Assembly: GCF_963921235.1 (NCBI RefSeq) | Contig: NC_086097.1 | Location: 97,094,001-97,158,000 of the forward strand | Direction of reading: 5' to 3' | DNA from: Mobula hypostoma | Taxonomy: Eukaryota | Length of the DNA: 64,000 nucleotides | Shown: positions 45,602 through 57,815 of the stretch, in pieces | How the letters are laid out: every line of letters starts with the position of its first letter | Numbering within the stretch: the stretch's first letter is position 1 | Made by a program: the position numbers and the translations under genes | The notes under the pieces: generated by a model | Seen by the model: the letters and a program-made list of their open reading frames with translations, nothing else | Databases searched by the model: none | Told to the model about the DNA's origin: nothing

Positions 45602-48600
45602 TGTTACATGCTCAAGGAGATCTGTTTTTTGTGAGAATGCTGTAATGGTCTTTTGGAGGTCACCTGATGTGATTTTCCCGCCGATGTGAGGTCACGTGAT
45701 GACATGTTCCCCGCCCCCCCCGTGTCTATATAAGGGTCGACTCAGGTGACGCAGTGGGTTTTTGAGTTTGTAGATTTCCTGGTGGAACGTGTTGTGCCTC
45801 CGTTTCTGTTGCGTGTTTATTTTTGTGCCGCAGTTTCATTTTTAAAACGGAAGGTGCGTTCTCTTGCAAGATATTGCATTTGGATTGGAAATTTGAGGCT
45901 GGAAGTGCCAATTTACTCAATTCCGACAATTCTGAAGGGAGAGTGAAGAATTCATCAAAGTGAAGCATCGACAGAAGTCGGCATAGTTTGGCAGTTTAAT
46001 AAAGGATCGACCTTATTGCGTCTTCGTTGAAGAGAACCTGCATTGAGATAACTCTTGTAAAAGCGCAATGAGTTCATGCACAAAGGCTCTCTCTCGAAAA
46101 GGAAGTTAAGGTCAGTCGATATAAACTGTTTATTTTCGGCATCGGGAATCCTGTGGACAGAATCAGCAGTAAAGGTGCGTCTGTGAATAAATCCTTCTCC
46201 AGAGAAGTCTCTCCCAATTGAATGTGTAAAACCGTTGGACTTTAGAAGTTTTCGCTTTAAGAACTATATCTGATTGTATCGCTTTAAGAAATGTTTTCGC
46301 ATTTAACGCTTTAAGAACCAGAGCCGAGTGGAGTTGATGAACGGCTGCGTACCTGTTTAACCTCCGGTTAAAATTTTCCTTTTTTTTTCTTTTATCGTTT
46401 ATACATGTTTAATAAATGTTTGGTTGTTTTCATAAAACCTGTCTCGATTAATATTCATTGTTGCCGGTTACGTAACATAATTTTGTGGGTGCTCGTGGGA
46501 TATGTTCTGATTCTGAGTTTAAGTGCTGATAATTGCCATTTTGATTTGGTAAAAGGGAATACCCGGTTTTTTTTTTGGTTTGATTGGTGTATGTGTTGTA
46601 TTCGGCAACAATGGATATTGACGAGTTTTAGAAGACGCCTGACTCGGGATTTTTAAAGAATGCGAGAAAACCTGTGGTATTGGAGATTGCTAAGAAGTTG
46701 GATATTAAAGGAATTACGAGGAATTCTACCAAGGCTTTCATACAAAGGAAAATTGCTGAACATTCTATTAATTTGGAATGTTTTGAGGAGGAGGTGTTAG
46801 AGAAGTTTCCAATGAGTAATCTCGAAATGCAGTTGCATCTTGAACAGTTAAAGTTTGAAAGATTTAAAGTGGAAATGAGAGGAAGAGAAGCTGAAAACCA
46901 GAGGAAATTTGAGCTAGAGATGGAGAAAATAGGGTCTGGGAATCAGTCTTCTGGTTCTACAAAACAATTTATTGCTAGTCGTGAGGTTGTTTTGGCTCCT
47001 CCATTTAATGAAACTGATGTGGATGCATATTTTCAGCATTTCGAAACAGTTGCTCTGAGTTTAAAGTGGCCAAAGGACCAATGGCCAGTGATGTTACAAA
47101 GTGTAATTAAAGGCAAGGCACAACAAGTTTACACAGCTTTAAATGCTGAGCAAGCACTGGATTATGATATTGTTAAAGAGAATATATTAAAAGCATACGA
47201 GATGGTTCCGGAAGTGTATAGAGAAAGATTTAGAAGTTTAAAGAAATCGGTGGAAAAAACTTGTGGAATTTGCTTATGAGAAATCTGTGTTTTGAGAGAT
47301 GGGTTTCCTCTAAAAATGTGAATGGGGAGTATAATAAATTGAAAGAGCTGATTTTGCAGGAGGAATTTAAAAGAAGCATTCCTGTTGAAGTGAGAACATA
47401 CTTAAATGAACGGGACACTGCTACATTGCAGGAAATTGCTAAGTTGGCTGATGAGTATGTTTTAATTCACAAGAATAAATTTTCTCCAGGTACAATTTTT
47501 AAAAGGAAAACTAGCACAGAGAGTCAAGGTAAATCAGAAATTAAATCTGAAGTTAGTGAGAAAAGTAAGGATGAAGGGAGACGTGAAGGAAAGACATTTT
47601 GGTATTATTTGTAATTATTGTTAAGAAACCTGGACCTGTAGTGGCTAATTGCTTCTGATTGAAACGGAAAGAGAAAGAAGTGGCCCCAGATGCTTGTGTG
47701 CAGCATATTGAAAAACCTGTAAAACCACAGGGTTTAGGAAATATTAATGAAGATGTGTCAGAGTCTGACCAAGTTAAGAAGGGATATGAGGCTTTTATAG
47801 CAGAAGGATTTGTATCCTTGAAAGAAGGATCCAATGCAGTACTGATAAGGATACTTAGAGATACTGGAGCTTCACAATCACTAATATTAGATAGTGTGTT
47901 AAGGTTTAGTGATGAGTCTGACATTGATGAGGTAAATTATATAAGAGGAGTAGGGAGTGCCCTTATGCCAGTACATTAACATAGAGTAAATTTAAGGTCA
48001 GGATTAGTTACAGGGGTTGTTAAAGTAGGACTACAATCCAGTTTACCTGTGAATGATGTTTCTCTTTTGTTAGGGAATGATTTAGCAGGTGGACAAGTTT
48101 TTCCTGAAGTGCATTTGACAATAAATTCAAATTCTGAGGAACCACAGAGGGATTCTAACATAGATTCTTCCTGTGTTGTAACAAAAGCTATGGCTAAAAA
48201 AGACTGATGTAAAAGATGTGGTTGTTACCCATGACAGTTCAAATCAAGATTTGAATTTTGAGGATGTATCAGAAACTTTCTTATCTACCTTATTTGATCA
48301 GGATTTTGATGGTAAGTCTGATGGGAAGATTTGTCTTTATCTCGGAAGGAGATGATAGCAGAGCAGGGTAGGGATCCTGAGATAGTTAAATTAAAAGAGC
48401 AAGCCCTTCCAGATAGTGAAATTGTAAAAGTACTAGTTGGATATTATTTTGAAAAGGGGGTATTAATGAGAAAGTGGAGATCGCCTACAATTCTTGCTAA
48501 TGAGGAATGGGAAGTTAATCATCAGGTTGTTGTTCCTAAAATTTACCGAAATGAGATTTTGACTATGCCTCATAGTATTCCTTTGGGTGGTCATTTAGGG

Positions 48601-51600
48601 ATAAAGAAAACTATGAACAAAGTTTCTAAACATTTTTATTGGCCTAGTTTAAGACAAGATGTGGCGACATTTTGTAGAACATGTCATACATGTCAAATTG
48701 TGGGTAAACCTAATCAGGTTACTCCAGTGGCCCCACTGCAACCAATTCCAGTATTCGGTGAGCCGTTTTCAAAAATCATTGTAGACTGTGTAGGTCCTTT
48801 GCCAAAAACTAAAACTGGACATCAATATTTATTAACTATTATGTGTACAGCATCTAGGTTTCCAGAGGCAGTACCTCTTAGGAATATAATAGCCAAAACT
48901 GTGACAAAGGCTCTTATAAAATTCTTCACTTATTTTGGGTTCCCTAAGGAAATACAATCTGATCAAGGAAGTAATTTTATGTTTGGGTTGTTTCAGCAGA
49001 TAGTTTATAAACTGGGAGCAAAGCAGATTATTTCCTCAGCCTATCATCCAGGATCACAAGGAGCCTTGGAGAGATTTCATTCTACATTAAAAACTATGAT
49101 TAGGACATATTGTGTAGAAAATGAAAAGGATTGGGATGAAGGTATACAGTTACTACCTTTTGCAGTCAGGGAGGTAGTACAGGAATCATGAGGTTTTAGT
49201 CCTATTGAACTTGTGTTTGGACATAGAGTTCGAGGACCTTTGGCTTTGTTGAAGGAACAGTGGATTAATAAAGAAGTATACACTAGTTTGTTAGATTATG
49301 TTTTGAAATTTAAAGACAGGTTGTACAAAGCTTGTAGTATGGCCAAAGAAAATTTTAAGTTAGCTCAAGAGAACATGAAGACGTGGTATGATAAGGAAGC
49401 TACGATGAAGTCATTTAAGCCTGGAGATAAGGTGTTGGTTCTTTTCCCAGTGGAAATGAACCCATTACAGCAAAATTCCATAGTCCTTATGAGATTAAAT
49501 CTAAGGTAAATGAGGTGGATTATGTGGTAAAAACCGCAGATAGGAGAAAGACAACACAGCTGTGTCATATAAATATGATAAAGCCGTATTATGAGAGAGA
49601 GGTTGTTACTGTGACTGTTAAGGAAAAGGGTTAAGGAAATTAAACTCCAATTTAATAATCCAGTTTAATGTTACAGGAGTAGAATATTTTGATCACTCAT
49701 ATCAAGGGTAAAGATAATGTGATCACTGACAGTTTGTCTAGATGTTGAATGTACAATGAAAATTTTTTTTTTGAAGTGATGTTTTTAATCATTTGTAACA
49801 CTCCTACTGTACATTAGTTTGTAAAGGACTGAAAGATAAGATTGTATATATTGTGTATTTTGTAAATTTTATACCTTTGTATTTTTTTGTATAAATTGTT
49901 AAATTTTTGTTTTTCGAGAGACCAAAAATTTTTTTTTTTGGAGAGAGGTGTTACATGCTCAAGGAGATCTGTTTTTTTTGTGAGAATGCTGTAATGGTCT
50001 TTTGGAGGTCACCTGATGTGATTTTCCCACCGATGTGAGGTCACGTGATGATATGTGCCTCCCCCCCCCCCGTGTCTATATAAGGGTCGACTCAAGTGAC
50101 GCAGTGGGTTTTTGAGTTTGTAGATTTCCAGGTAGAATGTGTTGTGCCTCCGTTTCTGTTGCGTGTTTGTTCTTGTGACGCAGTTTCATTTTTAAAACGA
50201 GAGGTGCGTTCTCTTACAAGATATTGCGTTTGGATTGGAAATTTGAGGCTGGAAGTGCCAATTTACTCAATTCCGACAATTTTGAAGGGAGAGTGAAGAA
50301 TTCATCGAAGTGAAGCATCGAGAGAAGTCGGCATCGTTTGGCAGTTTAATAAAGAATCGACCTTATGGAGTCTTCGTTTGAAGAGAACCTGCTTTGAGAT
50401 AACTCTTGCAAAAGGGCAATGAGTTCATGCAAAAAGGTGCTCTCTCTAAAAGGAATTTAAGGTCGTCAATTTAAACTGGTTATTTTCAGCATTATGAATC
50501 CTGTGGACAGAACCAGCAGTAAAGGTGCGTCTGTGAATAAATCCTTCTCCGGAGAAGTCTCTCCCAATTGAATGCGTTAAACTGTTGGACTTTAGAAGTT
50601 ATCGCTTTAAGAACTATATCTGACTGTATCGCTTTAAGAAATGTTTTTGCATTTAACGCTTTAAGAACCAGAGCCGAGTGGAGTTGATGAACGGCTGCGT
50701 ACCTGTTTAACCTCCGGTTAAAATTTTCCTTTGTTTTTTTTTCTCTTATCGTTTGTACGTGTTTAATAAATGTTTGGTTGTTTTCATAAAACCTGTCTCG
50801 ATTAATATTCATTGTTGCTGGTGTAGCCCCCCTGGCCACCCTCAGGGTCGCTCGGCTCGCTGTCGTCTAGGGAAACAGCCTCGGCCCTGCCAAACTGGAT
50901 AATTCGTTTATGTGGATGCTGTGTGAGGTACCCCACCCCGCCCAAATAACAGACAATACACCAGATGCAATTAAATGATATACAGTTTATAGATATTACT
51001 GGAACTATATAATTAAAAGAGAATAAATTATAAAAGGAAAATAAAAGGTGCCACACTTATCAGAGTTCAATCTCTTCGTGCACAAAAACCCGTTGGAGCT
51101 CAAGGACCTTCTTCTTCACCCTGCGACCCCCTCGGACCACCTCGACCGGCCGCCTGGGACCAACAACGGTGGTCAACCAGACGCTCCACAGGAGTCCGTC
51201 TCCTTGCCGAACGTCCCGCTCGGGGTCCGACCCCGTTAGCGGACTCACAGCACCTCGTCCATCCTCTGTCTCGCTCTCCCGCCTTCTACCCCAAAACCCC
51301 GCGCATACAGTATCTTCAAATACACCAAAACCATAACAACTATCCCAATTGGTTAATAACGTTTTTCTTATCACCTTCTGAACCAAAGTAGTGCAAACTT
51401 TCTCAACGTTTAACACAACAAAGCCGCATTCCCCAGATTAACATAACAAAGACGCCATTTTAATTAGCCTCCGCAGTAACATAAAAATCGAAACCCCCTT
51501 ACACTCTCCCCCCACCAAATAAAGTCATGTCCTCATGACTTCTAAATAACTCGCCACCCAGTCCTGCAGACACACAACACACACATACACAGATACACAC

Positions 51601-54600
51601 AGTGACAGTGCTCCCCAAACAGTGGACCTGACTCCCGTCCCACGGGCGCTACATAGGCCAACCTATCTGGGAGCTTCTTAACCCTCCGAGACCTCTGTAC
51701 CCCCTCACCTAAACCCAAAAGGCTCAGACACTACTAGGGATACCTCGGGCCTGCTTGCCAACTCCTCTCTCACTCAGGCCACCATTACAGCTCAGAGCCC
51801 CCAGTCCCGTGTCCGGGCCCCGCCTCTCCTCCTTCCCAATCCTGCCACAACTCAGACTGCCCACAGCTAGCCCTCCCCACTACACCTGACTCAGTGGGAG
51901 AAGGGCCAAAGGTCTCTTCCTCAATCATGGGGAAGTTAGTGAAAGGCAGCATGTACCACATGTGCCCCACATCATCCTTTGAATCCGTATCCTTCCTCAT
52001 TCCCTCGATCGGTAGCTGCTGTTTAAGTTTCTCCAAACTGAAACATTTAGCTGGGGCTACCCCTTCAGCCTCCTGCAGTCGAGACGTCAGCTTCTTCGGG
52101 GACTCCTTTAACTCTCGCCACAGCCTCCGCAGTTCTGACTCAGGGTTCCTGGCCATCTCAGTCTGGGACGCAGTTACCCCACCAGCTTCTCCCTCCCTGA
52201 CCTGAAAAGCAGCAGTTAAAGAATGTTCAGCCTCCGGTGGTTTCTTCCTGAGGGCGTCTTCCAGGTCAACGTTCAGTTTTTCCACTTCATTTAAACTCAC
52301 GATAGTCAACTTCAGGTTCCTTTCAAGCGTCCGCCTCCCTTTACCGAGATCTGTCCTCCATTTCTTTACCTCCTCGGGAGTGTAGTCAAACTCCCCTCCC
52401 CGGGCTCTCGGTTTTCTGTTGACCTTAGTCAGAACACTTCCATGATCTTCCCCAACTTGCAAGTCTTCCAATCTGTTCTGAATCGACGTCTTGAGTTTCT
52501 GCTGATCCCTTCGAAGGCGGGTCATTGTTTCTTCTCGCTGGATTAATTCGTCAGTATATGACCGCAGTGCGGTGCAAATCCCCTTTCTCCCCTGTGTCTC
52601 ATTCAGATTGGCGACCCAGGTTTTCATCCCCAGGTCCACCACTGTCTGTCCCAACACCAGGAAGTTCAACTGGTATGTCGGGTCATTTTGCACCAAACTC
52701 CTCTGGCCAAAAACTCCTCCACATTTGACACTTCGCTTCGGTCGCCCGGGCTCAGCCACTCGCCTCGCCTCATAGTCCCCCCAGGCGAATCCAAGCTCTA
52801 GGCGGTCATCCACATACGTCAAAACTCCACACACCTTCACTTCCCCCATGGTCTTCCTCATGCCCCGCGGGAAGGATGTAGGGGCTCCGGATATGCCCTC
52901 GGGCATCTTTTCGGATTGGAGGAATCCTAGGGAACTAGTAAAGGCCATCTTCAGCTCAACAGCCGCACCCCTCAGGATCTGGCAACATCCACTCCTCAGA
53001 TGCAGCACATTAAACCACATCGCATCATCCACACACACGCTGCCTTCATCTTCCACGCCGCCAGGGTCCAGTTGCTGCGACCTCTCTCTCACTGAGGTGT
53101 CTTCAGCGGTCAACTTCCCTCCCTCGTGGTGGTTCGGAGCATCTACTAAGAGGGTCTCACCCTCAACTACTTTCCCCAAGCCGTACCACCGCTGGGTCTC
53201 GTTTAAATTCGGTACTGGCTCAAGCCTGCTACACACGTCCTCAGAAGCAACTCGACACGCTGGGTGCCCAGACAATGCCCCCATGAACTCCAGGGTCACT
53301 AACCAAACATTGTCTTCTGGATAACTACTGCCACTAGTACCCAAAGTCTCCGGTGCCCTTGCGGTTGTCAAGGATAAATGCTTCAGACACCGGTTGTAAA
53401 ACGAACTGTACAACAACTTGATCTGTGCCCCGAGGTCGAGGATGGCTTTAGCATCGCTTCCCTCTATTCATAACGACACCCTGGGGCGTGGTCCCTCTAA
53501 GCCTTCAGGAATAGGGTCTTTTCCTTGCGGAAGTTCAGTGGTACATTGCTGGGAACGTGCTTCCCCAGAGACCCCAAGCCTTTCCCCCACTGGGCCTCCA
53601 CTAAGTTTCTCGATCCCTCTCTGATCAGCTGAATAACTGAGGGAGGGGCTGATCCCCTGAAATGATCCCCCTGGTACTACAAGCAATTTAGCCGCCCTCC
53701 TCACCAGAGAAGACACACTGAAAACTTTCCCCCCCTCTTTCAAATAACTGACAGCTGTCACTACGGTGTAAGTGAACCTGACAGCTCTAACACTGTCACC
53801 AGCCCGCCTACTCAAACCTTCAACCAATCCCTGTCGCTCTCCCTCAACCGAGCACTGCCACTCATGTAACAACTGAGAGATCCTCTCCGCCCGCGTCTCA
53901 CACGCCTCCGCCCCTCTTGGGGTGGACACTATCCCAAGTGCCAGGCGGAGCCTGCCAGAGCTAGAACATTTATTCGCAGACTCTACCTCCAAATCAGACC
54001 ACTCTTTCCTCTCTCTCCCAACCGCATGGACAGCCCCGAGTGCCACCTCCAACTCGTCAATGCCAGCCTGAACTCGAACGAAGACCTCACCCACCACGCA
54101 TACAGCAATAACCAGCAAATAACCCACAGAGAGACACACTACAGATTTAAACAGGGCACTCACACAGCATACCAACAGCCTCAAGCATCCCGGACAAAGC
54201 CCCCACAATGTAGCCCCCCCGGCCACCCTCAGGGTCGCTCGGCTCGCTGTCGTCTAGGCAAACAGCCCTCGGCCCCGCCAAACTGGGTAATTAGTTTGTG
54301 TGGATGCTGTGTGAGGTACCCCACCCCGCCCAAATAACAGACAATACACCAGACACGATTAATTGATATACAGTTTATAGATATTACTGGAAATATATAA
54401 TTAAAAGAGAATAAATTATAAAAGGAAAATAAAGGGTGCCACACTTATCAAAGTTCAATCTCTTCGTGCACAAAAACCCGTTGGAGTTCAAGGACCTTCT
54501 TCTTCACCCTGCGACCCCCTCGGACCACCTCGACCGGCCGCCTGGGACCAACAACGGTGGTCGACCAGACGCTCCACAGGAGTCCGTCTCCGTCTCCTTG

Positions 54601-54920
54601 CCGAACGTCCCGCTCGGGGTCCGACCCCGTTAGCGGACTCACAGCACCTCGTCCATCCTCTGTCTCGCTCTCCCGCCTGCTACCCCAAAACCCCATGCAT
54701 ACAGTATCTTCAAATACACCAAAACCATAACAACTATCCCAATTGGTTAATAACGTATTTCTTATCACCCTCTAAACCAAAATAAGCTGCTAGTGCGAAC
54801 TTTCTCAATGTTTAAACACAACAAATCCGCATTCCCCAGATTAACATAACAAAGACGCCATTTTAATTAGCCTCCGCAGTAACATAAAAGTCGAAACCCC
54901 CTTACACTGGTTTAGTAACA
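45602..54920 (+). mobile_element. Gmr1-like Gypsy LTR retrotransposon, RT-deleted (outer element)
   Basis: 5' LTR 45602-46477, 3' LTR 49949-50821 + 54911-54920, TSD GGTC, PPT ggagagagg. SCAN-like Gag, protease LRDTGAS, integrase (HHCC, DCVGP, SDQGSNF, ERF) directly after the protease. Confidence 0.93.
50822..54906 (-). mobile_element. Non-autonomous Gypsy LTR element (PNMA-like Gag) with myosin-rod-like insert (inner element)
   Basis: LTRs 50822-51503 and 54209-54906 (TGTA...TACA), TSD CTGG, tRNA-Pro-type PBS tgggggctttgtccgggat, PPT ggggggagag. Gag/PR/RT/RH remnants in one frame. Confidence 0.93.
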
Positions 54921-55497
54921 GGTCAACTTAAGTAAAGAAAGGACTAATAGGAAAACTGAGAAAAAAGAATGTCCCAGTTCCTGCTTGGATATCGAATTTA
55001 CACTGTCTGAACTTAAAAGGGATATTAATAGTGCTGATGAAACATCACCTGGGAAAGATGATATTTGTTTTAATATGTTTACACAGTTATCGTATTCAAA
55101 GCTTGCGCTGGTTTTGAAATTCTTAGATACAAGATTGGCTGAAGGGGGATTTTCTGCTTCCTGGAAGTTAGTGGTTGTTAACCCTATAGTGAAACCTGGT
55201 AAAGATCAATTATATCCTTCTAGTAAAAAACCTATTTCGTTCACTTCACGTGTATGTAAGATAATGGCTTTCTTTTTGTGGAAAGGAATGGAAAATCAGC
55301 TGTGTAGCAGTTTGGATTTCGTAAAGGGAGAATGACCTGGGATTTGGTGTTAAGTTTATAATCTGATATTTGTAAGACCCAAGTTAATAAAGAATCAGTG
55401 GTAGCAGTTTTCTTTGATGTAGAGAACCCATATCATATATTATGGGTACAAAGATTGCTGCTTAAACTGGAAAAGATGGGAATAGGTGGTAGAATGC

Positions 55498-55498
<1 letters not shown>

Positions 55499-55556
<58 letters not shown>

Positions 55557-55568
55557 ACACACACACAC
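55499..55568 (+). repeat. (AC)n microsatellite
   Basis: Seen directly. Confidence 0.97.
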
Positions 55569-56550: not shown

Positions 56551-57361
56551 AGTCATAGTCATACTTTATTGATCCCGGGGGAAATTGGTTTTCGTTACAG
56601 TTGCACCATAGATAATAAATAGTAATAGAACCATAAATAGTTAAATAGTAATATGTAAATTATGCCAGTAAATTATGAAATAAGTCCAGGACCAGTCTAT
56701 CGGCTCAGGGTGTCTGACCCTCCAAGGGAGGAGTTGTAAAGTTTGATGGCCACAGGCAGGAATGACTTCCTATGACGCTCTGTGCTGCATCTCCGAGGAA
56801 TGAGTCTCTGGCTGAGTGTACTCCTGTGCCCACCCAGTACATTATGTAGTGGATGGGAGGCATTGACCAAGATGGCATGCAACTTAGACAGCATCCTCTT
56901 TCCAGACACCACCGTGAGAGGGTCCAGTTCCATCCCTACAACATCACTGGGCTTACGAATGAGTTTGTTGATTCTGTTGGTGTCTGCTACCCTCAGCCTG
57001 CTGCCCCAGCACACAACAGCAAAGATGATAGTACTGGCCACCACAGACTCGTAGAACATCCTCAGCATCGTCTGGCAGATGTTAAAGGACCTCAGTCTCC
57101 TCAGGAAATAGAGATGGCTCTGACCCTTCTTGTAGACAGCCTCAGTGTTCTTAGACCAGTCCAGTTTATTGTCAATTCGTATCCCCAGGTATTTGTAATC
57201 CTCCATGATGTCCACGCTGACCCCCTGGATGGAAACAGGGGTCACCGGTACCTTAGTTCTCCTCAGGTCTACCACTAGCTCCTTAGTCTTTTTCACATTA
57301 AGTTGCAGATAATTCTGCTCACACCATGTGACAAAGTTTCCTACCGTAGCCCTGTACTCAA
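56551..57361 (-). mobile_element. Rex1/Babar-like LINE 3' part
   Basis: KTKELVVDLRR...YKYLGIRIDNKLDW...LYFLRRLRSF...SFLPVAIKLYN, followed by AATAAA and an (atgact)n tail. Confidence 0.88.
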
Positions 57362-57815
57362 CCTCTAACTTCCGCTAATGCCCCACCTCCCCCTCGTACC
57401 CCATCCGTTATTTATTTATATACACACATTCTTTCTCTCTCTCTGTGCTTTTTCTCCCTCTGTCCCTCTCACTATACCCCTTGCCCATCCTCTGGGCTTT
57501 CCCCCCCTCCCCCTTTTCTTTCTCTCTAGGCCTCCTGTCCCATGATCCTCTCGTATCCCTTTGGCCAATCACCTGTCCAGCTCTTGGCTCCATCCCTCCC
57601 CCTCCTGTCTTCTCCTATCATTTCAGATCCCCCCCCTCCTCCTCCCACTTTCAAATCTCTTACTATCTCTTCTTTCAGTTAGTCCTGCCGAAGGGTCTCG
57701 GCCCGAAACGTCGACTGTACCTCTTCCTAGAGATGCTGGTTGGCCTACTGTGTTCACCAGCAACTTTGATGTGTGTTGCTTGAATTTCCAGCATCTGCAG
57801 AATTCCTTGTGTTTA
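57362..57815 (+). mobile_element. Isolated Penelope pseudo-LTR
   Basis: Close reverse-complement match to ~310-732. Confidence 0.9.

Follow-up and report, generated by a model that had tools for sequence, protein, structure and literature searches.

Replication-defective transducing retroviruses carry gag-host or pol-host fusion frames in which spliced host cDNA takes the place of viral coding sequence, and they depend on a helper. Tan et al. (2016, Genome Res 26:1663, PMC5131818) explained the LTR-mediated retrocopies of animals by template switches that are guided by microsimilarity and occur in the course of reverse transcription. In that account, such retrocopies are intron-free fragments of host mRNA that lie between parts of an LTR element on its sense strand and can form in-frame chimeras; they occupy single loci with discontinuous element flanks and eventually diverge from non-autonomous elements. 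The maize element Bs1, as summarised in PMC13317346, is a plant LTR retroelement without the full machinery that holds pieces of host genes, segments of three of them, inside a hybrid ORF.

The window (the whole stretch of Mobula hypostoma DNA that was analysed, 64,000 nucleotides) contains at 50822-54906, on the minus strand, a 4.1-kb non-autonomous Ty3/gypsy-type LTR element flanked by a 4-bp target duplication. We consider it very probable (about 0.88) that this element belongs to a high-copy non-autonomous family that goes back to a single capture of spliced MYH16-type mRNA in place of the integrase, and that later diversified while its cargo drifted. Like transducing retroviruses, the family has spliced host cDNA in place of coding sequence and in frame with it, and it would depend on a helper; unlike them, it is a germline-resident retrotransposon, and its cargo is a structural coiled-coil fragment without a signal of selection on its sequence. 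It shares with the retrocopies of Tan et al. the intron-free host fragment between element parts, on the sense strand and in a possible in-frame chimera; in contrast to those retrocopies as that account presents them, it kept its LTRs and polypurine tract, transposed on, formed subfamilies and occurs in several ray species. With Bs1 it has in common an incomplete LTR retroelement with host gene pieces inside a hybrid ORF, whereas its cargo derives from one animal gene and precisely replaces the integrase. The family adds a new case of LTR-mediated gene capture and stands out by the mass amplification that followed. It provides a well-documented vertebrate case in which a captured host mRNA fragment rode a mobile LTR element to very high copy number in several ray genomes, and in which the captured myosin fragment did not end as a dead retrocopy. 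No paper describing this element family was found in the PMC open-access subset or in bioRxiv.

The element and its chimeric frame

The element is bounded by two LTRs in direct orientation with TG...CA ends, the 5′ LTR of 698 nt at 54209-54906 and the 3′ LTR of 682 nt at 50822-51503, both delimited as direct repeats and by LTR-LTR alignment (K2P 0.039). With an LTR divergence of about 4%, the window copy is fairly old. Direct reading gives a target-site duplication, CCAG on the element strand, at 54907-54910 upstream and at 50818-50821 downstream. A PBS-like stretch (TTGTGGGGGCTTTGTCC...; 54190-54208), named for its position only, lies just inside the 5′ LTR, and the polypurine tract GGTGGGGGGAGAG (51504-51516) adjoins the 3′ LTR. 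LTRs, a polypurine tract and a perfect target duplication had been proposed from the sequence alone, and all of them are in place. Between the 5′ LTR and the long open frame, a gag remnant (53468-54208) is indicated by copy comparison and by a sub-threshold match to PNMA, a Ty3/gypsy gag-type family (E 0.002). The gag frame has no Met, and its terminal stop is a Trp codon in 10 other copies.

The open frame itself runs over 560 codons from stop to stop (51785-53467, minus strand), as read from the ORF list and its translation, and it joins a protease remnant, a reverse transcriptase (RT) fragment, the start of RNase H, pieces of myosin and the C-terminal tail of Pol. The 543-aa ORF of the sequence-only reading is this frame begun 17 codons further in, and the peptides quoted there recur letter for letter in the translation. 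The Pol remnants were assigned by comparison with an autonomous relative, L056, whose Pol carries RVT_1 at 175-334, RNase H at 421-550, Integrase_H2C2 at 707-762 and rve at 777-873, followed by a C-terminal tail, and whose gag is of the PNMA type (E 5e-37). The window ORF matches the protease, RT core and tail of this relative. The protease remnant (ORF aa 1-61; 53285-53467) is 56% identical to the L056 protease ORF (E 5e-17). The RT core fragment, which includes YVDD (aa 138-235; 52763-53056), is 44% identical to L056 Pol aa 204-300 (E 1e-19); elsewhere it matches Pfam RVT_1 at a sub-threshold E of 0.1-0.2 and the Ty3 RT in the PDB at E 0.067. About 20 residues from the start of RNase H follow (NDPTYQLNFLVLG...; 52628-52687), which align with the NYPTH(K/Q)L(N/E)FLALE motif of L056, L044 and L050 before the domain is truncated. 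At the other end, the tail of the parental Pol (..DTDSKDD..WYMLPFTNFPMIEEETFGPSPTESG..; 51785-52006) is 51% identical over ORF aa 482-528 to L056 Pol aa 1090-1136 (E 9e-7), a segment that sits downstream of the integrase in L056.

Of the Pol order protease-RT-RNase H-integrase, the window element thus has remnants of the first three, in order; Pfam searches of the ORF and comparison with L056 Pol found no integrase. Since the full order is present in L056, the window element is a non-autonomous derivative. The LTR of L056 matches the window LTR only partially (76-78%), and no helper with LTRs matching the window family was identified. The earlier proposal that the host segment had replaced most of RNase H and integrase holds for the integrase but not for RNase H. 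A less-deleted copy, L044, keeps RNase H up to ..YRPG.., and the loss of most of this domain is therefore a later deletion in the window's family. The original capture replaced the integrase only, from where RNase H ends up to the Pol tail.

Myosin ancestry and the host source

Three collinear pieces of myosin rod occupy 52627-52007 and correspond to residues of about 951-1417 of P0028, a myosin-16-like protein of the elephant shark. The first, S1 (ORF aa 281-425; 52193-52627), matches P0028 residues 951-1109 except for two whole-codon deletions, one of 9 and one of 7 residues; S2 (aa 426-451; 52115-52192; AGGVTASQTEMARNPESELRRL) matches 1145-1168, and S3 (aa 452-487; 52007-52114; KKLTSRLQEAE..AKCFSLEKLKQQL) matches approximately 1379-1417. 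Of a rod that exceeds 1000 residues, the window copy preserves about 205, interrupted by four internal gaps.

That these motifs belong to a sarcomeric myosin rod, and are more than a generic coiled coil, had been claimed from the sequence alone, and several searches bear this out. A phmmer search of PDB chains returned 15 distinct sequences at E<=1, 12 of which are myosin II heavy chains or an MYH7 rod fragment. The best match, of ORF aa 300-413, is gapless to MYH7 974-1087 (E 6.3e-7); weaker collinear stretches fall at MYH7 ~1140-1170 and ~1385-1425, and S3 matches 4xa3, a fragment of MYH7 1361-1425, at E 0.0057. When aa 291-500 were compared by HMMER with all 1.84 billion representatives, 24 proteins scored E<=1e-3, eight of which carry Pfam Myosin_tail_1, one of them a 1943-aa myosin. 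One of the checks that had been suggested, a search with Pfam Myosin_tail_1, came out negative: neither the window ORF nor the module alone matched it even at E<=10, and only sub-threshold coiled-coil families appeared. This silence, and the tendency of coiled coils to inflate scores, would fit a chance resemblance without myosin ancestry; such a coincidence is refuted by the decisive evidence, a gapless nucleotide identity of 79-96% to spliced host exons that ends at the exon borders, and we give it practically no weight.

The closest myosin type appears to be MYH16, as the sequence-only reading had guessed. The best long matches of a host-type sequence, P0015, are mostly proteins named myosin-16 or myosin-16-like, and the ORF of L044, the best-preserved one, is 51.6% identical over 186 aa to P0028 residues 951-1133, compared with 47.3% to an MYH7-like and 44.6% to a myosin-2-like protein. 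An upstream extension of the captured rod reaches P0028 residue about 883. The segment resembles an MYH16-type heavy chain in that S1-S3 are collinear with its rod and the DNA matches host exons; it differs in its embedding in Pol and in lacking a motor domain. Pfam found no Myosin_head in the window ORF, and of the two parts of a full myosin II gene, a motor domain and a complete coiled-coil tail, only rod pieces are present. The captured segment is a myosin fragment, not a myosin gene.

The host source was located at G000:C68:14.61 Mb, where two exons, A of 146 nt and B of 91 nt, are bounded by canonical AG/GT sites and lie on either side of a 3.0-kb intron. When A and B were joined in silico (237 nt), all 30 element copies compared aligned without a gap across the junction. 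The identity to the spliced exons was 87.9-95.8% in the 10 copies of other subfamilies and 78.3-81.8% in the 20 copies of the window family; the highest value, 96%, belongs to the L044 copy, in the least diverged subfamily. In the window, the matching parts of S1 are 52241-52388 (79%) and 52202-52229 (89%). Homology between element and host DNA starts and stops exactly at the exon borders, three of which were compared. The cargo is thus free of introns, element sequence lies on both sides of it (RNase H upstream, the Pol tail downstream) and exons of its parent gene lie elsewhere in the genome, which upholds the proposed origin from a spliced host mRNA. The dN/dS between element and host exons was 0.13-0.86; with at most 79 codons and the constrained host branch included, these values were not relied on. 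Three other loci, C45, C36 and C68:25 Mb, had been considered as the source and were rejected as wrong paralogues with a weak match to sarcomeric myosin; tblastn and blastn of the window module against them gave nothing better than E 0.7.

No further host exons were found within 26 kb around A and B, so that the source is known from two exons. An isolated pair of this kind could also be an exonised copy of the element, the reverse direction of transfer, and element pieces do enter gene models, such as the SDHAF3 isoform model P0010. However, a 3-kb intron with canonical AG/GT borders splits what is contiguous in the element, and no RT, tail or LTR sequence flanks the exons. A gene model of an electric ray contains the same two exons (90% and 80% aa identity), and myosin-16-like proteins of chimaera, teleosts and lampreys run collinear with the module for more than 400 residues. 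We therefore regard a transfer from element to host as highly improbable, and we retain capture of host mRNA by the element.

Copies, subfamilies and the capture

The sequence-only reading proposed a search for further genome copies with the same junctions and judged that the element had probably moved as a unit. A DNA search gave 1341 first-look candidates, and the 40 that were scored were all 94-100% identical over at least 790 of 801 nt. Collinearity over about 3.4 kb was seen in 17 of 19 other copies, and three of the four complete copies checked have their own 4-bp duplications: CCAG in the window, CTCA in L017 and TCAG in L002. In the fourth, L003, no such duplication is present; a polypurine-like tract precedes its 5′ LTR and points to a tandem arrangement. 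K2P distances between LTRs range from 0.029 to 0.055 across copies. Movement as a unit is thus upheld. Maize Bs1 has a low copy number; the amplification of the family described here is very high.

Sister subfamilies retain progressively more of the rod, different subfamilies lack different in-frame blocks of it, and the window family is among the most deleted. The 10 diverged loci compared all share the RT region, the module and the stretch from tail to LTR with the window element, at 72-89% nt identity, and related gene models are present in Mobula, Hypanus and Hemitrygon. Hence the myosin segment is not an insertion unique to this copy, which had been named as a finding that would overturn the earlier proposal. 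The capture did not occur at the window locus; it is old and common to diverged subfamilies and to several stingray and devil-ray genomes. Assembled contigs of four runs (3 coded organisms, 3 studies) cover 30 of 30 ORF bins, the run type being guessed and transcription not deducible from contigs.

The spread of identities to the host exons, from 96% down to 78%, might mean that related elements took up myosin mRNA independently on several occasions, and the RNase H of L044, which has no close copy elsewhere (the next matches have at most 73% aa identity), would agree with this. We find repeated capture very unlikely, as the 3′ junction, from S3 through the Pol tail to the LTR, forms one continuous alignment in 10 of the 10 diverged loci and the 5′ junction stretch is common to 6 of them. 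Every subfamily, like the proteins of four ray species, shows the S1/S2/S3 order and the same tail, and breakpoints identical across subfamilies are already largely seen. Because the subfamilies share these junction regions, we infer a single old capture of the myosin fragment.

We propose the following history for this single capture. An ancestral element would have acquired, once, a fragment of a spliced host mRNA for an MYH16-type sarcomeric myosin, covering rod residues of about 883-1420. The most likely route would be LTR-mediated retroposition, in which the RT switches templates between element RNA and a host mRNA packaged with it. The fragment took the place of the integrase, from the end of RNase H to the Pol tail, in frame on both sides. 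The chimera retained the two LTRs, the polypurine tract and the stretch that follows the 5′ LTR; it would therefore have stayed mobilisable, and its copy number and the copies' own target duplications suggest mobilisation in trans by proteins of autonomous relatives. It then split into subfamilies, in which various in-frame blocks of RT, RNase H and myosin rod were lost. The myosin part is probably carried as cargo whose amino acids drift at about the neutral rate, and copies decay once they have inserted.

Frame integrity, drift and annotation

Two of 20 copies are open over at least 560 codons. The other 18 have roughly two private stops or frameshifts each (about 1.8), scattered, at approximately 3% private divergence. 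Of 21 private indels, 18 shift the frame and 3 are whole-codon; by comparison, the six indels by which the module of the window family differs from the reference or from its sister subfamilies all comprise whole codons (Fisher p 3e-4). The earlier suggestion of internal deletions with the frame preserved therefore stands, as the gaps of the window family are whole-codon and sister subfamilies hold more of the rod. These nested in-frame deletions constitute a record of how reverse transcription reshapes a repetitive coding cargo. These comparisons suggest that the lineages which went on replicating kept the long frame free of interruptions. The bias toward in-frame deletions may be partly mechanical, since deletions between similar heptad motifs (..LEEA..) keep the frame. 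There is also an ascertainment bias, in that the window family was noticed through its long ORF.

No signal of amino-acid constraint was detected in dN/dS between subfamilies. The in-frame NG86 values were 0.87 for PR-RT, 0.60 for myosin and 0.71 for the tail, no lower than in the two wrong frames, where the controls spanned 0.48-1.36.

The myosin coiled coil could be more than cargo, if a replicating lineage needs an uninterrupted PR-RT'-coiled-coil frame. The founder of the window family was free of lesions over 560 codons despite the lesion load and private divergence of present copies; subfamilies lie 15-28% apart in nucleotide sequence, the cargo continues the Pol frame at either end, lineage indels preserve codons in the manner described, and many related copies sit within open frames 300-724 aa long. 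However, the dN/dS of the true frame does not fall below that of the wrong ones, gag has no conserved start codon and a variable stop before pol, deletions between repeated coiled-coil motifs preserve the frame by nature, and the loss of different rod parts in each subfamily leaves no particular segment indispensable. Therefore, we regard a need for the frame as rather unlikely. That a defective lineage has kept the myosin coiled coil and Pol remnants as one frame across repeated cycles of replication and numerous deletions, with the frame required and the amino acids drifting, seems to us a shade less likely still. If it were true, selection would act on "being an ORF" in a non-autonomous element. 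Possibly, ribosome transit would then shield the long RNA from the decay that a long untranslated 3′ part can bring, or a multimerising, self-associating fusion protein would aid packaging into helper particles. The combination of a drifting protein with an intact frame makes it testable whether non-autonomous elements need translation. We continue to favour the reading of the myosin segment as drifting cargo.

In public ray genomes, copies of the element are annotated as "myosin-16-like", "putative uncharacterized protein MYH16" or "myosin heavy chain ... -like", and one copy is annotated within an SDHAF3 isoform. Such myosin labels on element copies can mislead gene-family counts.

Structure of the chimeric element

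The element copy in the window is bounded by direct repeats of about 0.7 kb with TG...CA ends on the minus strand (5′ LTR, 54209-54906; 3′ LTR, 50822-51503), which are separated by a K2P distance of 0.039. The 3′ repeat is adjoined by the purine run GGTGGGGGGAGAG and CCAG stands on both flanks, in agreement with the polypurine tract and perfect target duplication described in the sequence-only reading. At 4.1 kb, the element is too short for autonomy. Its translation contains a stop-to-stop frame of 560 codons (53467 to 51785, minus strand), preceded in the same frame, with one stop between, by a 261-codon stretch whose gag-type (PNMA) match is weak (Pfam, E 0.002, under the cut-off).

In L056, an autonomous relative, a PNMA-type gag (E 5e-37) is accompanied by a protease ORF and a Pol of 1453 aa, in which RVT_1, RNase H, Integrase_H2C2 and rve follow in Ty3/gypsy order before a C-terminal tail. 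The window ORF matches this relative in the protease (aa 1-61, 56%), the RT core (aa 138-235, 44%, E 1e-19) and the tail (aa 482-528, 51%). From the RT core to the tail, it carries the first ~20 RNase H residues and three myosin rod pieces: S1 (aa 281-425), S2 (aa 426-451) and S3 (aa 452-487), corresponding to residues 951-1109 (with gaps of 9 and 7 residues), 1145-1168 and ~1379-1417 of an elephant-shark myosin-16-like protein (P0028). In a less-deleted copy, L044, RNase H is kept up to ..YRPGSYNID.. and the myosin part extends up to P0028 residue 883. The cargo had been proposed to replace most of RNase H and integrase; comparison with L056 and L044 upholds this for integrase, whereas most of RNase H was lost later, in the window family, since L044 retains it. 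Intermediate deletion states are seen in sister subfamilies, with a long S1, S2 and S3 in L048, no S2 in L044 and L045, and most of S1 missing in P0006 and P0007. Several gap edges in the myosin module coincide with ..EE../..LEEA.. motifs that resemble each other, as would be expected if the deletions arose between short stretches of like sequence.

Taken from the window copy alone, the evidence for myosin likeness is mixed. Even at E≤10, Pfam reported no Myosin_tail_1 match, whether the query was the full ORF or aa 291-500 by itself. In contrast, 12 of the 15 phmmer matches to PDB sequences at E≤1 were myosin II heavy chains or an MYH7 rod fragment; the top match aligned MYH7 974-1087 to ORF aa 300-413 without gaps (E 6.3e-7), and two more collinear stretches were the same ones named in the sequence-only reading. 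A scan of aa 291-500 against 1.84 billion representatives gave 24 matches at E≤1e-3, comprising one 93% identical, 13 short gene models 53-71% identical, and weaker matches; eight of the weaker ones carry Myosin_tail_1, and one of these eight is a myosin of 1943 aa. In three of the short models, the myosin-like part is preceded by an RT match; therefore, the fusion is not private to the window copy.

Origin of the myosin cargo

The best-preserved ORF, that of L044, was compared with candidate myosins with composition correction off, so that the E-values are generous. Identity was 51.6% to P0028 (residues 951-1133, E 9e-54), 47.3% to MYH7-like (E 4e-46) and 44.6% to shark myosin-2-like (E 1e-41), which supports the suggested MYH16 as the closest myosin by a modest margin. 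An electric-ray model named myosin-6-like (P0015) served as a bridging protein, and its best long hits were mostly NCBI-named myosin-16 or myosin-16-like (elephant shark, teleosts, lampreys). Searching the window's own genome with P0015 yielded 1154 first-look candidates; the 150 scored were mostly intron-free and 37-74% identical, with one short 87% match at C68:14.61 Mb.

This locus contains exon A (146 nt, acceptor CAG, donor GTGAGT) and exon B (91 nt, acceptor AAG, donor GTAAGA), 3.0 kb apart. Joined in silico (237 nt), they aligned gaplessly across the junction with all 30 element sequences tested, with identities of 87.9-95.8% in 10 diverged copies from other subfamilies (L043-L052) and 78.3-81.8% in the 20 window-family copies, confirming myosin-like sequence in the ORF. 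In the window, the match covers 52241-52388 and, past a whole-codon deletion, 52202-52229. Against unspliced host DNA, an element copy aligned in two blocks delimited by the exon borders to within a few coincident bases. The gapless junction and the block limits show that the cargo derives from spliced mRNA of this gene or of a paralogue very close to it; the proposed intronless host mRNA is thus borne out.

No third myosin exon was found in 26 kb of this presumed source gene (C68:14599001-14625000; L055, L053, L054), and a full-length ray myosin-16-like protein was absent among the 120 listed long P0015 hits. In rays, the MYH16-type gene may contain very long introns or be undergoing decay. 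Some 0.7 Mb away, at C68:15.31-15.89 Mb, eight Myosin_tail_1 matches to one profile stretch (~225-407), spaced mostly by 65-80 kb, look like tandem sarcomeric myosin genes. The L044 RNase H frame begins with a 110-nt stretch (reverse strand 599-707) that is 91% identical to an upstream intron region of the host locus (2592-2701, counted from C68:14599001), probably an unrelated short repeat in both. L021 (C18:48745314-48746731) and L022-L024 hold long, contiguous matches to Myosin_tail_1 that span as many as 407 profile positions and contain several stops but no introns; they resemble ordinary processed pseudogenes derived from a different myosin, apart from the element family.

Spread of the family and possible selection on the frame

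All 10 diverged loci have the RT region and the module in common with the window element, along with an unbroken alignment that starts in S3, crosses the Pol tail and reaches the LTR; six of them also share the stretch spanning the RNase H/myosin junction. These shared regions point to one capture followed by spread. An 801-nt DNA search for the window family gave 1341 first-look candidates, and all 40 scored (window included) were 94-100% identical over at least 790 nt. The element evidently moved as a unit, since 17 of the other 19 copies align collinearly along ~3.4 kb at 92.6-96.2% (exceptions: L004, a deletion; L020, rearranged) and three of four complete copies have their own 4-bp duplications (CCAG, CTCA, TCAG). 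LTR divergence of 0.029-0.055 across complete copies indicates that they are old, with absolute ages hinging on the ray mutation rate. Related gene models occur in Mobula birostris, M. hypostoma, Hypanus sabinus and Hemitrygon akajei.

In the fourth complete copy, L003/L059 (C50:41743701-41748489), a polypurine-like tract, ..GGTGGGAGGAGAG, precedes the 5′ LTR where the target duplication is expected, which suggests two tandem elements sharing an LTR. In H. sabinus, P0010 ('succinate dehydrogenase assembly factor 3, mitochondrial isoform X1') fuses a genuine LYR domain to the element S2-S3-tail, either by exonisation of a copy or as an annotation artefact.

When the window copy was paired with diverged copies, NG86 dN/dS was 0.87 for protease/RT, 0.60 for myosin and 0.71 for the tail, within the 0.48-1.36 obtained from the same alignments in two wrong frames; amino-acid constraint was undetectable by this comparison. 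Two of 20 copies keep the frame open for at least 560 codons and scattered private lesions mark the rest, which implies that the family founder had it intact. Private indels are mostly frameshifting (18 of 21), whereas all six indels setting the window-family module apart from the reference or from sister subfamilies are whole codons (Fisher p 3e-4), as expected from the proposed frame-keeping internal deletions. As the cargo is also in frame with Pol at both ends, we interpret the pattern as selection that kept the frame free of interruptions in the lineage that went on replicating. A mechanical explanation, in which deletion between like motifs keeps the frame unaided, may partly account for the whole-codon indels, and the family was noticed for its ORF. 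This interpretation is further tempered by the lack of an evident start codon in the copy comparison and by the gag/pol stop, in place of which 10 other copies have a Trp codon. Overall, the earlier interpretation is supported with these refinements.

Related systems and neighbouring features

The element's architecture is reminiscent of helper-dependent transducing retroviruses. It also recalls maize Bs1 (PMC13317346), and the probable capture mechanism matches LTR-mediated retroposition as set out in Tan et al. 2016 (PMC5131818). Distinctively, the chimera remained mobile and multiplied massively; searches of the PMC open-access subset and bioRxiv found no description of this element.

Beside the element, on the plus strand at 48322-49509, two adjacent integrase-like open frames of 289 and 105 aa (..HCxxC.., ..SDQGSNF..) would, from their translation, belong to a different LTR element. 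A 225-aa open frame at 56697-57374 (minus strand) presumably resembles the C-terminal portion of a reverse transcriptase of the non-LTR type. At 55480-55560 lies a (CA)n microsatellite, which reads as HTHTHT/CVCVCV in translation.
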